From Escherichia coli (GTDB taxonomy: Bacteria; Pseudomonadota; Gammaproteobacteria; Enterobacterales; Enterobacteriaceae): DNA of 64,000 nucleotides. The stretch's first letter is position 1, and each line of letters opens with the position of its first letter. Shown here piece by piece: positions 51,001 to 57,000 of the stretch. The stretch lies in NCBI RefSeq assembly GCF_045037415.1, contig NZ_CP173438.1; one strand, given 5' to 3'. Position numbers: made by a program.

Positions 51001-54000
51001 AACTGCGTGCCCATTTTCATAATGGGTAAAATGAAAATTGGTCAGCGTTAGCTTGCCACCGTCCGGCAAATGGCGACACATCAGCAAATGATGGCGAAAA
51101 TGCGACTGCGGCCAGTGCGCCGACCAGAAATTGCCTATCACATAATCGCTTTGTTGCTGCTCGCAGAGATCAAAACGGTACATCGACTGCCAGTGCTGAT
51201 GATGATTAAACTGCAATACCCAATCATCACCCTCTTGCAACAACCGATACTCTCCGTGTGGCGTGGTTTGCATGATATCCGGCATTAAACGAATCGGCGC
51301 GGTTAGCGTCTGCCCACCGAAACCGACATCAGCAATCCATTTTTCCCCTTCCAGTTCCACCAACAGCAAACGATGGGTGCGCGGCGGTAATGCTGGCGGA
51401 TTTGATAACACTACGCGACCTAACAAGCTGCGAACGTTAAACCCCAGCTCGCGTAACACCCGCTCAAACACGCCATTCTGCTCAAAACAGTAACCGCCAC
51501 GACGGGCTATCACCAGTTTCTCTTCCAGCGATTGATCATCAAGCTGTATTTCCCTCGGCAGCAAAACGTCGAGATTTTCAAACGGAATGGTGCAATTGTG
51601 TTTCAGGTGCAATGCACGCAGCGTATCAATATTGGCCGCAGCAGCTCCCAACCAGTTAATACGGGCAAAATAATGATTCAGAATGGGCGTCATCAGGCGT
51701 TTCCCTTAGTGGTTTTCTCAACTTATAACCTGGAATAGACGCCGCACTGGCTATTTTGTGCGATCGCGGACATGCATCACGTTCGCAAATCGCCAATCCC
51801 GTTAATTTCGTTACTTATTGCGTTACGAGCTACGCTTTTAAAACACCCTTCATAGCGAGGCGATATCGTGAGCCAATTCATTCCCGTCGAATTACACCAT
51901 GCCAGCTGTCTGTTAAATCATGGCCCAACTGTCATGATCACCAGTTTCGATGAGCAATCCCAGCGGCGTAACATTATGGCAGCAGCCTGGTCGATGCCCG
52001 TAGAGTTTGAACCGCCACGCGTGGCGATTGTGGTAGATAAATCGACATGGACCAGGGAGTTGATTGAAGGTAACGGTAAATTTGGCATCGTTATCCCGGG
52101 CGTTGCGGCGACTAACTGGACGTGGGCGGTGGGAAGTGTGTCGGGTCGTGAAGAAGATAAGTTTAATTGCTACGGCATTCCGGTAGTGAGAGGCCCGGTG
52201 CTTGGTTTGCCGCTGGTCGAGGAAAAATGTCTGGCGTGGATGGAGTGTCGCCTGCTACCTGCGACTTCCGCGCAAGAAAAATACGATACGCTATTTGGCG
52301 AAGTGGTATCTGCAGCGGCAGACGCACGAGTATTTGTCGAAGGCCGCTGGCAGTTTGATGATGATAAGCTCAATACGTTGCATCATTTAGGTGCTGGCAT
52401 GTTTGTTACCAGTGGTAAGCGAGTTACGGCAGGTTAAGCATTACATGCTGTAACCGGGTTTCTTTATCAAAGCCTCCATTTGGGGCGCGATTTCGGCCAG
52501 GGCAAGATTACGAAAGCCCGCTCCCCGCAAGGACTGACGCGAGATAGTTTCTGTCCATGGCTGCTTTTCGCATCTTACGTCTTAACCCTGCCTTGAATAC
52601 CTTATCATTCGTTAAAATATTAATAGCGATGTGCCGTATCCCTGAAAATAATTCTGCGGCGTTTCCTCTTCTTATTTTGCAGTCGTCTTCATTCATTACC
52701 ACGTCCAGACGCCAGTGCAGCTTATTCTCCACGTGCCAGTGGTTTCGGATTGCTGTGGCGAACTTCTCTGCGGTTAAATCAGCAGAACTGATATAATATC
52801 TGACCGTCATTTCTGGCTCTTTCTTTTGTTCTGCTATTATGGACCGAAAGGAGACTGCCACGCATAATTTCTTCAGTCCTTTCCATTCGAACGTGAAATC
52901 AATAAGTTCATCAGGGACATCGCAAACAATATGAAGACGGATTTCTTCTCTGCCGTGACTCTTTTCACTAATGGCGTAACTGTCATGTTCTGGATTATTT
53001 AATTCTTTCAGTGGAAATTTTTCCTCAAAGGCTTTATTAAGCCGCCCCTGATTTCCTTTTACAGCGAATAAATAATCACCGCCCTGTTTTTGTATCTTCT
53101 CTGCAATATCTTTCTGGCAACCCATCGCATCAGTTGTGATGATTTTTCCTTTAATATCCAGCATGTTAAGAAGTTCAGGGATAGGTGTAATTTCATTGGA
53201 TTTCTCATCCGTCCTGATCTGTCCGATGACCAGACTGTGCATTGTTGAGAACGCACTAATGACATGAATCGCTCCCTTGCGGCGACTCTTGTCATAAGAA
53301 TGCCGGAGTGTTTTTCCATCAATTGCGATGACGTCTTTATCATCTGAAGAATGGCAGTCACGCATCCAGTTAATAAAGCACTCGTGAAATTTTGCAGGAC
53401 TGATACAGGATACAACTCTGGCAATGGTATCGTGAACAGGAATACCATTATCAAAATCACCATATTGCTTCAAAAAATCGAGATGTGTTTCCCCAAAATC
53501 CTCTATATCTTCCCAGCCTTCTGCACCCGAAATAACGGCACAAATAGTCAACAGTAGAATATCCGATAATTTATGTTCCACTTTCCAGGCTTGTCTGTAA
53601 TCGGGGATAATAGAAATATGTTCCATCAATTTTTTAAGTTCCATTTTGTTCTCCTTAATTATGTAAGGAGTATTTGATCATGTATAAGCAATAAAAAACA
53701 GCTTCAGGTAATGAGGAATATCTCAATTTTTAAACATAAAATGCGAATTATTTAGTACAAAAAAGCAGCGTTACGTGATCTTTCCCTGATATCTTAATCT
53801 GCACATAGCCATCTTAACGTTATGCCCCATACATTAGTAATGTAAATTAAGAATTCGGAATATATTAAATTCACTTCATAAATTAATATTGAGAATGATA
53901 TACACATTAATTATATTGAAGTAATGTTTTAAGAGTTGTAATGCCCATGGAACAGGACTAATTCCAGAAACTCCTGTTGGGCAATAGCGCGTTTATCACC

Positions 54001-57000
54001 CTACATGCCTCTTACATTTTTTAGCCTTTTCTGTAATGTCGGCAATTGGCTCATTTAATCAGCAATTGTATTGGTATTTGGCGTATTACCCCTGAAACCC
54101 ATCATGTGCTAGCCCCTCACTATTCATTGAGCCAACCACGCCAGTGTCCACTGCAACCACTGGCGTTCAGAGCGACGAACGAGTGGCGCAAGAGTAGGAC
54201 TGCAGTCAGGTATCATCAAACCAATAGTGGTTGTTTCCGTCATAATTTCATCAGGTTGCTATTTTGTCGCCAGCCGACTTTATCCCCACATATTTATAGC
54301 GGGATTATTTTGCATCGTTACATGATAAAAGGTAGGATTCTGCGCCGACAGTTATACCCATAAAGAATAATGGTGAATCTTGTCATCGCCAGGATGAATA
54401 AACATTGTTCATGGCAACTTATATGACTTTTTCATTAAAGCAATCAGGGAGAGCAATGAGTAAACACAACACCGACACTTCAGATCAACACGCCGCGAAA
54501 CGCCGCTGGCTTAATGCCCACGAAGAGGGGTATCACAAAGCGATGGGCAATCGCCAGGTACAGATGATCGCCATTGGCGGCGCGATTGGTACGGGTTTGT
54601 TTTTAGGCGCGGGGGCGCGACTGCAAATGGCGGGGCCCGCACTGGCACTGGTCTATTTGATCTGCGGCCTGTTTTCGTTTTTTATTTTGCGTGCATTGGG
54701 TGAGCTGGTGTTACACCGCCCTTCCAGTGGCAGTTTTGTCTCTTATGCCCGTGAGTTTTTGGGTGAGAAGGCCGCTTATGTTGCTGGCTGGATGTACTTC
54801 ATCAACTGGGCGATGACGGGGATTGTTGATATTACCGCCGTCGCTCTGTATATGCATTACTGGGGCGCGTTTGGCGGCGTGCCGCAGTGGGTCTTTGCGC
54901 TCGCTGCACTGACCATCGTTGGCACCATGAATATGATCGGTGTGAAATGGTTTGCGGAGATGGAGTTCTGGTTTGCGCTTATTAAAGTGCTCGCCATTGT
55001 AACCTTTTTGGTCGTGGGTACAGTGTTCCTCGGTAGCGGTCAGCCGCTGGATGGCAACACCACTGGCTTTCATTTAATCACCGATAATGGCGGCTTCTTC
55101 CCCCACGGTTTGCTGCCTGCGCTGGTGTTGATTCAGGGCGTAGTGTTTGCTTTTGCCTCCATTGAAATGGTGGGTACAGCGGCCGGAGAATGTAAAGATC
55201 CGCAGACCATGGTACCTAAAGCGATTAACAGTGTGATTTGGCGTATTGGTCTGTTTTACGTCGGCTCCGTGGTGTTGCTGGTTATGTTATTGCCGTGGAG
55301 CGCATATCAGGCGGGGCAAAGTCCGTTCGTGACGTTTTTCTCTAAACTGGGTGTGCCATATATAGGCAGCATTATGAACATTGTGGTGCTGACCGCTGCC
55401 CTCTCCAGCCTGAATTCAGGTCTGTACTGCACCGGGCGTATTCTGCGCTCGATGGCGATGGGCGGTTCCGCACCGAGTTTTATGGCGAAAATGAGTCGTC
55501 AGCATGTGCCGTATGCCGGGATTCTGGCGACACTGGTTGTGTATGTCGTCGGCGTATTCCTCAACTATCTGGTGCCGTCACGCGTATTTGAGATTGTGTT
55601 GAACTTCGCGTCGCTGGGAATCATCGCTTCATGGGCGTTTATCATCGTTTGCCAGATGCGCCTGCGTAAAGCGATTAAAGAAGGCAAAGCAGCGGATGTC
55701 AGTTTTAAACTGCCTGGCGCGCCCTTCACTTCCTGGCTGACATTACTGTTTTTACTGAGTGTCCTGGTGCTGATGGCGTTCGATTACCCGAACGGGACTT
55801 ATACCATCGCGGCGCTGCCGATTATCGGTATTCTGCTGGTTATAGGCTGGTTTGGTGTGCGCAAACGCGTTGCTGAAATTCACAGCACTGCGCCAGTCGT
55901 CGAGGAAGATGAAGAAAAACAGGACATTGTGTTTAAGCCTGAAACGGCGAGTTAATTGCAAAATTGCCCGGCTACGTGCCGGGCAAATTCAGACTACTGA
56001 CGAAGGTGCCGGATGCGGCGTGATAAAAGTCAGGCAATTCTTTCCGTTTTCACCCTCGCCATATCTATTACAGCGCAATACGAATCACATCGTCCGGCTG
56101 GGTAGCTTCCTGCTGTTTAGTGGATTTTTGTTTCACACTGACATACAGCGTTTTGCCATCGGCAGACAGCGCCAGACTGTTCGGATGAGTCGGCGTATCG
56201 AACGTTTTCACCACTTTATAGCTTTTCGCGTCAATCACACTGACTTTACCTGCCTGACGATGCGTCACGTAGGCTTCATTACGCGCTGGGTTAAACAGCA
56301 CAGCCAGTGATTCCGGTGCCGCAACCTTCGCCAGAATATTGCCATTACGGGTATCGACCACTAACACTTCTGCCGCTTTAGAATCGGTGATAAATGCACG
56401 CTGATTGGTGGTATCAAGGCTGATGTTGATAAAGAAGTGCTCTTTGCCGTCATCCAGCAGCTTTTTACGGCTGAGGATTTTATTGTCGGTGGTGTCGATG
56501 GTAATCAATTCGCCGTCAGCGTTAGTGGTGTAAAGACGTTTGCCTTTGCTATCCAGCGCCAGACCGGTACTCATTTTACCGGTGTTCTGGATGGCGGTTT
56601 TCAGTTTGATATTCTCGCCATCAACGACCCAAATCACGCTCTCTTTACCAATACCACTGATGTAAACGGTGTTCGTGGTATCGTCAGCTACCAGCTCACG
56701 TGGTTGCAACGGGCGTACCTCTTCCGTGCGCTTACGATCATCCAGCACCAGACGTCCTTTCACTTCGCCCGTTTTGGCATCTATCGCCGTGACCGCACTA
56801 TTTACGGTGTTACCAAACCACAACGTCTGAGTCGTGTTATTGATGGTGGCACCAAACGGCTTGAGATCGTTATGGATCGCCTGCGTCACTTCCAGAGTAA
56901 CCGGATCAAGACGATAAACCACGCCGCCTTTATCCAGTTTGCGGCTTTGCGAAGTGGCAATCCACAGCGCGTTTTCTTGCTGGCTATAAGCCATTTCGTA

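Follow-up and report, generated by a model that had tools for sequence, protein, structure and literature searches.

A probable deletion scar at the RhsE locus

K-12 strains of Escherichia coli carry the RhsE element between ansP and yddH, in the order ansP-yncG-yncH-rhsE'-ydcD-yncO-yncI'-ydcC-pptA-yddH. In the 64,000-nucleotide stretch of E. coli DNA analyzed here (contig NZ_CP173438.1; referred to below as the window), a solitary H-repeat (H-rpt) and an AT-rich stretch occupy this site. The initial annotation, whose K-12 gene order was correct, left two explanations side by side: reduction of an Rhs element to its H-repeat or insertion of an ISAs1 copy into an empty site. Our analysis settles this choice toward island loss: the region is probably the deletion scar of a polymorphic T6SS effector ('RhsE'/vgrG-Rhs) island between ansP and pptA-yddH.

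The window carries a complete ISEc1 element

The site is bounded on the left by the conserved flavin reductase family gene yddH (51868 to 52437, plus strand; identified as an ORF and annotated by RefSeq in a genome with 100% identity; 94% identical to K-12) and on the right by the ansP start codon at 54456 (RefSeq), placing the H-repeat between these two genes as originally described. Its 378-aa DDE transposase gene (ydcC; 52508 to 53644, minus strand) is intact, also as described, with no internal stop. The product matched the NCBIfam ISAs1 equivalog NF033564 over its full length (profile positions 1 to 314 of 314; 413.2 bits, cutoff 70), as well as Pfam DDE_Tnp_1_assoc (115.8 bits) and DDE_Tnp_1 (104.4 bits), and is 97.1% identical in amino acids to K-12 YdcC. 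RefSeq labels the gene "ISAs1-like element ISEc1 family transposase" under the name ydcC and types K-12 ydcC itself as ISEc5-like.

Alignment of five copies in four different contexts, in which identity runs from CAGGGCAAG to CTTTCCCTG, fixed the ends of the element to the base at 52498 and 53788, delimiting a complete ISEc1 of 1,291 bp on the minus strand. The terminal inverted repeat at the transposase 3' end (CAGGGCAAGATTACG; 52498 to 52512, read from the sequence) contains the transposase stop codon; its counterpart at the 5' end (reverse complement CAGGGAAAGATCACG; 53774 to 53788, from the alignment of copies) matches it at 13 of 15 positions, and both begin CAGGG. The element has the ISAs1-family layout, with a length of roughly 1.2 to 1.5 kb, one ORF, and short inverted repeats at its termini. 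Nucleotide identity was 96.6% to K-12 yhhI, annotated by RefSeq as an ISEc1-family transposase and used as the reference copy for ISEc1 assignment (at least 95%), 96.1% to K-12 ydcC, 99.0% to a copy in an O-antigen cluster, and 99.3% to the copy in strain TUM14697. The two K-12 copies are 97.9% alike, closer to each other than either is to the window element, so sequence identity is uninformative about orthology with K-12 ydcC. We conclude that the window element is an already annotated, ordinary ISAs1-family IS.

The element lacks a target-site duplication and truncates pptA

No target-site duplication surrounds the window ISEc1, whose flanks read GATTTCGGC and ATATCTTAAT. The 99%-identical copy in the O2/O50 O-antigen cluster has a perfect 10-bp duplication (CTATATAAGG) on both sides, which documents the duplication for a true insertion of this IS type; judged from that sequence context, the window's subtype is one that has transposed elsewhere. 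Rhs-linked H-rpt copies in K-12 and S10 likewise lack a duplication. We conclude that its absence from the window reflects loss of the flanks, not exclusion from ISEc1.

A 3' remnant of pptA (52441 to 52497, minus strand; codons 58 to 75 and the stop), whose translation AEIAPQMEALIKKPGYSM is identical to K-12 PptA residues 58 to 75 (18 codons), is cut exactly at the IS terminus. Homology to K-12 stops at 52497 (blastn), and in the alignment K-12 and L725 run on into pptA across 52497/52498, where the window changes to CAGGG. The joint is clean, without microhomology. The window IS sits 260 bp nearer yddH than the K-12 H-rpt, cutting pptA. The core genes flanking the IS are 94.2 to 96.0% identical to K-12, and the divergence of the IS is similar (96.1%).

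The AT-rich stretch holds an island-edge spacer and a yncG fossil

The 811 bp between the transposase and ansP (53645 to 54455) had been described as AT-rich and gene-free. The average composition stands (37.4% GC, compared with 48.5% across the window), but four unlike parts make it up: 144 bp of the IS 5' end (29.9% GC), a 230-bp spacer (31.7% GC; only 1.4% of 230-bp segments here have 31% GC or less), a 235-bp yncG fossil (46% GC), and 202 bp upstream of ansP (39% GC). The spacer (53789 to 54018), in which no gene was detected, corresponds to the conserved border of the variable RhsE/vgrG island on the side of ansP: it is 96% identical to L725, where the matching spacer precedes the first island gene by 270 bp, and over its first 100 bp it shares about 75% identity with the spacer between yncH and rhsE in K-12. 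K-12 and L725 cease to be homologous 22 bp left of the IS/spacer junction.

Next to the spacer lies a fossil glutathione S-transferase gene of the yncG type (approximately 54019 to 54253, minus strand), in which two blocks survive and deletions have removed the 5' end and the middle. With K-12 YncG as the query, tblastn recovered residues 61 to 100 (60% identity, E = 3e-10) and residues 175 to 200 (50%, E = 5e-4), and alignment with yncG of K-12 and ATCC 25922 sized the deletions at about 187 and 242 bp. L725 carries the same fossil. The remainder (54254 to 54455, plus strand) lies upstream of ansP as its promoter/leader region and is shared with K-12, to which the blastn match resumes at 54261. 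Because fossils of pptA and yncG are present, the locus is not truly gene-free.

Several other candidate features were considered and set aside. A 105-aa ORF (54046 to 54363, plus strand) had no Pfam match and runs antisense to the yncG fossil. A possible SD-occluding hairpin 5' of the transposase (53651 to 53670; -8 kcal/mol) was not significant (z = -1.08). An IS-end-like sequence at the L725 junction shares only the pentamer CCCTG, its neighboring bases being unlike the inverted repeat by eye. Rfam returned no structured RNA between 52300 and 54600 at E ≤ 1, and promoter and terminator counts were no higher than the shuffled expectation, the top promoter-like site (53889 to 53917, plus strand) amounting to no evidence.

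This lack of a promoter signal above chance counts against the idea that the H-repeat ORF is a domesticated single-copy host gene under selection, with the spacer serving as its own or ansP's regulatory region. ISEc1 is present once in all of the listed window-type genomes (the median genome has about 5 copies), the transposase dN/dS against other copies is 0.05 to 0.13, the window copy and the diverged TUM14697 copy both have an unbroken ORF and show 7 synonymous and 2 nonsynonymous differences, and no experiment is reported to have detected H-rpt transposition (PMC3032704), all of which fit domestication. However, six of these nine differences fall together within about 50 bp, and several equal K-12 variants, a clustering that resembles recombination rather than independent mutations under selection, and we therefore rejected the 7:2 count as a sign of selection. 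Other H-rpt copies carry frameshifts or stops, and the near-identical copy with its fresh 10-bp duplication points to recent mobility. We consider domestication very unlikely.

The effector island of related genomes is missing

In L725, S10, and 2A, the spacer leads into an intact hyp-hyp-vgrG-eagR-PAAR/Rhs-immunity island, the genes of which were confirmed by Pfam (VgrG domains; DcrB/EagR; PAAR, DUF6531, and RHS). O157:H7 has the layout vgrG-rhsE-dsORFs-H-rpt-pptA-yddH, with the H-rpt oriented as in the window. Where the window has the IS, L725 has about 9.9 kb comprising the rest of pptA, symE, the immunity gene, PAAR-Rhs, eagR, vgrG, and two small genes. The sequences flanking the IS are separated by 9.9 kb in L725 and by 5.6 kb in K-12, and they are contiguous in none of the comparator genomes. 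Trh52, a relative with the same spacer, keeps only a vgrG fragment and the immunity gene, which shows independent decay at the same site.

Remnants of the island were sought by tblastn (word size 2, E up to 10), the best E value across queries being about 0.3 between 52300 and 54600. For the Rhs core (K-12 RhsE and the 1,558-aa L725 Rhs), the best E value between 52300 and 54600 was 0.4, and no match reached 1e-3 anywhere in the 64-kb window; a core remnant within 53645 to 54455, named beforehand as a finding that would overturn the proposal, was thus absent, as predicted. L725 VgrG and EagR, K-12 YdcD, and the L725 immunity protein had no match, and K-12 YncH and YncO and two L725 hypothetical proteins left no credible remnant between 52300 and 54600. 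The initial annotation was accordingly right that Rhs, ydcD, and yncH sequences are missing, but it had also listed pptA and yncG as undetectable, and 18 codons of the former and a fossil of the latter survive.

An undetectable Rhs or VgrG remnant, together with a complete IS retaining both inverted repeats and an intact ORF, would fit the simple insertion of an ISAs1-family element into an ancestrally empty yddH-ansP site. Yet this IS type makes a 10-bp duplication and none is found, the break in pptA at codon 58 coincides exactly with the IS end, the flanks are separated by kilobases in both L725 and K-12, and, among the relatives examined that share the spacer and lack the IS junction, every one holds the island or fragments of it. 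We therefore reject simple insertion as very improbable, although an ancestral island-free state may remain conceivable, the sample being a few genomes. The opposite proposal, an Rhs element reduced to its H-repeat, is upheld as regards island loss by the L725, S10, and 2A spacers and the O157:H7 layout; its identification of the IS as the resident H-repeat is something toward which we only lean.

Origin of the scar

Both junctions are exact at the IS termini. What remains would be, in order, 18 pptA codons, an intact ISEc1, the spacer that formerly preceded the island, a much older yncG fossil, and the ansP promoter region. We infer that the IS generated or anchored the deletion or deletions, which may have been transposase-made and IS-adjacent; on the spacer side, illegitimate recombination via the shared pentamer CCCTG could have acted instead. 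A transposase-made deletion is put forward conditionally, since transposition of H-rpt has reportedly never been seen in experiments. That the H-repeat itself removed the Rhs island, as the coincidence of both deletion endpoints with the termini of the lineage's sole ISEc1 copy might suggest, is a tentative and rather doubtful proposition.

Where the IS came from is a separate matter. At about even confidence, we lean toward an H-repeat that was resident beside pptA, as in K-12-like and O157-like genomes. H-rpt lies 88 bp upstream of pptA in 2,885 genomes, 260 bp from the window position. Orthology with the RhsE H-rpt is nonetheless tentative, because the IS is nearer the transposed O-antigen-cluster copy (99.0%) than K-12 ydcC (96.1%). 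A less probable but serious competitor is that a new ISEc1 entered pptA (codons 57/58) of an ancestor with an H-rpt-free, L725-type island, which was then deleted, either in one IS-adjacent event (intramolecular transposition or CCCTG microhomology) or by homologous recombination with a second ISEc1 inserted in the spacer. The locus would still be a deletion scar, yet its IS would not be the RhsE-resident H-repeat. Consistent with new insertion, the window has the L725/2A type of spacer and yncG fossil, and the islands of L725 and 2A, which have this exact spacer type, carry no H-rpt beside pptA; the IS subtype is that of the demonstrably transposed copy; the clean pptA joint is as expected of a transposase-made one; and ISEc1 is known inside the L725-type island array in S10. 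New insertion nevertheless needs an independent, same-orientation hit within 260 bp of the site that H-rpt occupies in those 2,885 genomes, which would be an improbable outcome of random insertion across 5 Mb. Moreover, no genome was seen in which the IS interrupts pptA while the island is retained, and window-type genomes have no other ISEc1 to act as donor or recombination partner.

Distribution and implications

The same scar arrangement was found in 562 of 5,426 complete E. coli genomes. Each of two junction queries returned about 552 to 562 genomes, counts that join split matches up to 500 bp or more apart, such that K-12-like genomes, with the IS 260 bp away, score full coverage. No intermediate genome (IS present, island still there) was found in this search, in which joined matches keep the junctions from being cleanly separable. 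One scar-bearing strain, 81009, belongs to ST131 C1-M27 (PMC5823992).

The locus is a tidy case of genome decay involving a known element, not a new system. In an ST131-type lineage accounting for about 10% of complete E. coli genomes, the orphan VgrG/PAAR-Rhs module of effector and immunity genes has been lost from the RhsE site. Judging from gene content, loss of the immunity gene could leave these strains sensitive to the cognate Rhs toxin. If the H-repeat did remove the island, the scar would testify, from a natural setting, to catalytic activity of the supposedly immobile H-rpt and to its pruning of Rhs/T6SS effector islands, in this case leaving ST131-type strains without a cognate Rhs immunity gene.

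Comparison with known systems

The window IS resembles the ISEc1/H-rpt elements of K-12 (ydcC, or H-rptE, and yhhI, or H-rptB) in its 1,291-bp length, its CAGGG repeats, and its single DDE transposase, which shares the RefSeq name ydcC, and it has the same orientation relative to pptA-yddH as K-12 ydcC. Unlike the K-12 H-rpt, it adjoins no Rhs core, ydcD, or yncI and cuts pptA, and its nucleotide subtype is that of the B2/O-antigen-cluster copies (99.0%), not of K-12 (96.1 to 96.6%). With the RhsE/orphan vgrG-Rhs islands (K-12 b1455-b1461; EDL933 vgrG-rhsE; L725), the window shares the chromosomal site and both borders, the spacer by yncG/ansP and the pptA-yddH side (PMC3032704, Table 6; PMC7216683). 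The cargo is entirely absent (vgrG, eagR, PAAR-Rhs core, toxin tip, and immunity gene); K-12 retains a truncated rhsE, ydcD, and intact yncG, yncH, and pptA, whereas the window lineage has none of these intact. By its location and its H-rpt, the region is a remnant of the RhsE locus, not a member of the Rhs/vgrG-Rhs islands.

T6SS loss has also been described in multidrug-resistant E. coli, by tssM::ISEc12 in ST131-C and by deletions in ST410-B (PMC10711316). That report concerns the main T6SS-1/T6SS-2 loci, in contrast to the orphan island here, which a term search of its text did not return. ISEc12 in ST131-C is a simple insertion with a normal 5-bp duplication, whereas the window IS has none and marks a deletion; the ST410 deletion, unlike the window scar, has no mobile element at its junction. 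As at the window scar, T6SS-related genes were lost in an ST131-type background, an IS marks the ST131-C event, and each of the two reported events has one junction fixed throughout the clade.

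A complete ISEc1 element lies between yddH and ansP

The six-frame ORF list placed a 378-aa transposase ORF on the minus strand at 52508 to 53644, with yddH (51868 to 52437, plus strand) on one side and ansP (RefSeq start 54456) on the other. The protein gave a full-length match to the NCBIfam ISAs1-transposase equivalog (413 bits; cutoff of 70), matched both Pfam DDE_Tnp_1_assoc and DDE_Tnp_1, and was 97.1% identical to K-12 YdcC; RefSeq names the identical gene "ydcC, ISAs1-like element ISEc1 family transposase." The ORF list, NCBIfam, Pfam, and RefSeq agree with the initial annotation, which had placed an intact H-repeat (H-rpt, or ISEc1) transposase here. 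Aligning five IS copies from four contexts (the window, strain TUM14697, the O2/O50 O-antigen cluster, K-12 yhhI, and K-12 ydcC) gave identity from CAGGGCAAG to CTTTCCCTG, with flanks unrelated among copies, and set the ends of a complete, 1,291-bp ISEc1 at 52498 to 53788. Its terminal inverted repeats agree at 13 of 15 positions, one of them containing the transposase stop codon, and dN/dS between the window transposase and the other copies was 0.05 to 0.13. In kind it is a standard member of the ISAs1 family with one DDE transposase; ISEc1 is already known and annotated.

Two further features of the IS were observed. An inverted repeat, CTCCTTAATTATGTAAGGAG (53651 to 53670), kept in all five aligned copies, would place the transposase's Shine-Dalgarno sequence (AAGGAG) in a base-paired stem of the mRNA; the predicted stability of this hairpin was weak (−8 kcal/mol; z = −1.08). 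Between the window IS and that of TUM14697 (L007 8001 to 9291), 6 of 9 differences fall within ∼50 bp (alignment A4, columns 277 to 325), several of them being K-12 variants, which suggests that a short stretch of a single-copy IS has been gene-converted.

Evidence for a deletion scar at the locus

The K-12 gene order assumed in the initial annotation was correct, and the window was compared with K-12 by blastn. Window positions 50717 to 52497 correspond to nhoA-yddH, extending 60 bp beyond the yddH stop codon into the pptA 3′ end; 52497 to 53788 correspond to the ydcC H-repeat (96.1%), 53784 to 53888 to the stretch between yncH and rhsE′ (76%), and the sequence from 54261 on to the ansP upstream region. 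The pptA remnant (52441 to 52497, minus strand) translates as AEIAPQMEALIKKPGYSM*, PptA residues 58 to 75. The break is base-exact: at the very base where the window passes into the IS, K-12 and strain L725 run on into pptA.

The 811 bp between the transposase ORF and ansP, initially described as AT-rich and gene-free, consist of the IS's own 5′ end (144 bp, 29.9% GC), a spacer (230 bp, 31.7% GC), a fossil of a yncG-like glutathione S-transferase gene (235 bp, 46% GC), and ansP upstream sequence (202 bp, 39% GC). The yncG fossil, which the gene-free description overlooks, was recovered by tblastn (E = 3e-10 and 5e-4) and carries two deletions of ∼187 and ∼242 bp in alignment with yncG of K-12 and ATCC 25922. 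As the initial annotation had it, tblastn detected no Rhs core remnant in this stretch; nor did it find any Rhs, VgrG, EagR, immunity, YdcD, or YncH remnant at the locus. Rfam gave zero matches at the locus, promoter and terminator signals were not above chance, and these scans detected no function of the spacer's own.

The initial annotation offered two readings, an Rhs element reduced to its H-repeat or an ISAs1 copy inserted into an empty site. ISEc1 duplicates 10 bp of its target when it simply inserts, as is shown by a 99.0%-identical copy in the O2/O50 O-antigen cluster, where CTATATAAGG stands on both sides without a mismatch. At the window IS there is no target-site duplication, the flanks GATTTCGGC and ATATCTTAAT being different. 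Taken together, the lack of a duplication, the cut in pptA, and flanks that are not contiguous exclude insertion into an empty site, and the locus is a deletion scar. No microhomology was found at the pptA-side joint. On the island side, the IS ends in CCCTG (53784 to 53788), the same pentamer that precedes the junction point where the spacer is uninterrupted, in L725 (L004 8996 to 9000), strain 2A, and K-12; this may reflect a microhomology-mediated island-side deletion or coincidence, for which the odds at any one fixed position are ∼1 in 1,000.

The O-antigen copy was also viewed in its own context. In strain GPEC128-620 (L008 10716 to 13291), three ISAs1-family copies lie between the O-antigen genes and gnd, and the one 99.0% identical to the window ISEc1 and flanked by CTATATAAGG has an internal stop. 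H-rpt transposition has reportedly not been observed (PMC3032704); the CTATATAAGG duplication is direct sequence evidence that the H-repeat subtype of the window has transposed.

Relatives retain the lost island

The spacer and yncG fossil (53789 to 54270) were found at ≥80% coverage in 781 genomes, with identity of ≥99% in 559 and of 95 to 99% in 214. In the 95 to 99% group the spacer leads into an island, intact in L725-type relatives, which supports reduction of an Rhs element to its H-repeat. The initial observation was largely correct, and the first of its interpretations is the supported one. In L725 the order, with domains confirmed by Pfam, is yddH, pptA, symE, immunity gene, PAAR/DUF6531/RHS protein (1,558 aa), DcrB/EagR-like gene, vgrG, two small ORFs, spacer, and ansP, with no H-repeat at the locus. 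At least 80% of the length of this island is carried by 178 genomes. By coordinate comparison, 9,866 bp of L725 are replaced in the window by the 1,291-bp IS. Mutual homology between K-12 and L725 ends just 22 bp left of the window's IS/spacer junction; therefore, the IS lies practically on the conserved edge of the variable island.

Strains S10 and 2A have variants of the island at the same locus, and Trh52 retains only a vgrG fragment (192 bp) and the immunity gene, having separately lost most of the island. In Trh52 (L005 11186 to 12005) and 2A (L010 4360 to 4695), pptA is cut at another point, and the ∼33 bp left of it are joined onto the Rhs immunity gene at its end; the locus has decayed repeatedly and independently. 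Downstream of rhs, S10 (L013 1 to 7300; L014 1 to 8900) repeats a module of xerC (tyrosine recombinase), primase, HTH protein, symE, small ORF, and Rhs C-terminal fragment; these modules look like integrase-bearing cassettes with orphan Rhs toxin tips. An ISEc1 is also inserted between two Rhs-core fragments in S10.

Origin of the IS copy

In O157:H7 the order is vgrG, rhsE, small ORFs, H-rpt, pptA, and yddH, the H-rpt pointing the same way as in the window; this agrees with the reported position of EDL933 rhsE downstream of a vgrG (PMC7216683), and b1455-b1461 is listed as an Rhs site (PMC3032704). A same-orientation H-rpt lies 88 bp upstream of pptA in 2,885 genomes, only 260 bp from the window's position. 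Together with the lack of a second ISEc1 copy in genomes sharing the window's arrangement, and a divergence of the window IS from the K-12 copy (96.1% identity) on par with that of flanking core genes, this favors a resident RhsE-locus H-rpt that suffered deletions on both sides, to which we give an even chance. However, islands with the window's spacer type have no H-rpt beside pptA, and the window IS resembles the transposed O-antigen copy more closely than it does K-12 ydcC, RefSeq-typed as ISEc5-like. A new ISEc1 insertion into pptA followed by deletion is a somewhat less probable alternative to the resident copy. The two K-12 copies are most alike each other (97.9%), and identity is therefore a poor guide to orthology.

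Distribution of the scar and neighboring features

The 2.8-kb stretch at 51800 to 54600 was present at ≥80% coverage in 562 of 5,426 complete E. coli genomes, the best matches being 100% identical. Among the 562 is strain 81009, which belongs to ST131 clade C1-M27 (PMC5823992). Both window junctions are also present in TUM14697, with an IS 99.3% and a left flank 96% identical; the scar is therefore either older than the clonal ST131 group or has been exchanged beyond it.

Elsewhere in the window, read by colinearity with TUM14697 (99.3% over 17.3 kb), mcbR is only a ∼170-bp fragment (∼59550 to 59717), which the annotation labels a partial GntR-family regulator, and curA is wholly missing. Trh52 and ATCC 25922 are annotated likewise; mcbR is present in L725, S10, K-12, and O157:H7, and curA in the first three of these. 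Other 230-bp stretches with GC of ≤31% occur at least at ∼7730 to 8160, 14450 to 14840, 17380 to 18800, and 22580 to 22940, against just 48.5% for the window as a whole; they suggest that it has more AT-rich islands, acquired horizontally or of the H-NS type.

Comparison with known systems

Tested against an Rhs element, the locus shares its position and its H-rpt and none of the other defining features. A term search of PMC10711316 returned no orphan island at the RhsE site in that paper. The loss of type VI secretion genes in multidrug-resistant lineages that it describes is the closest published parallel to this scar.
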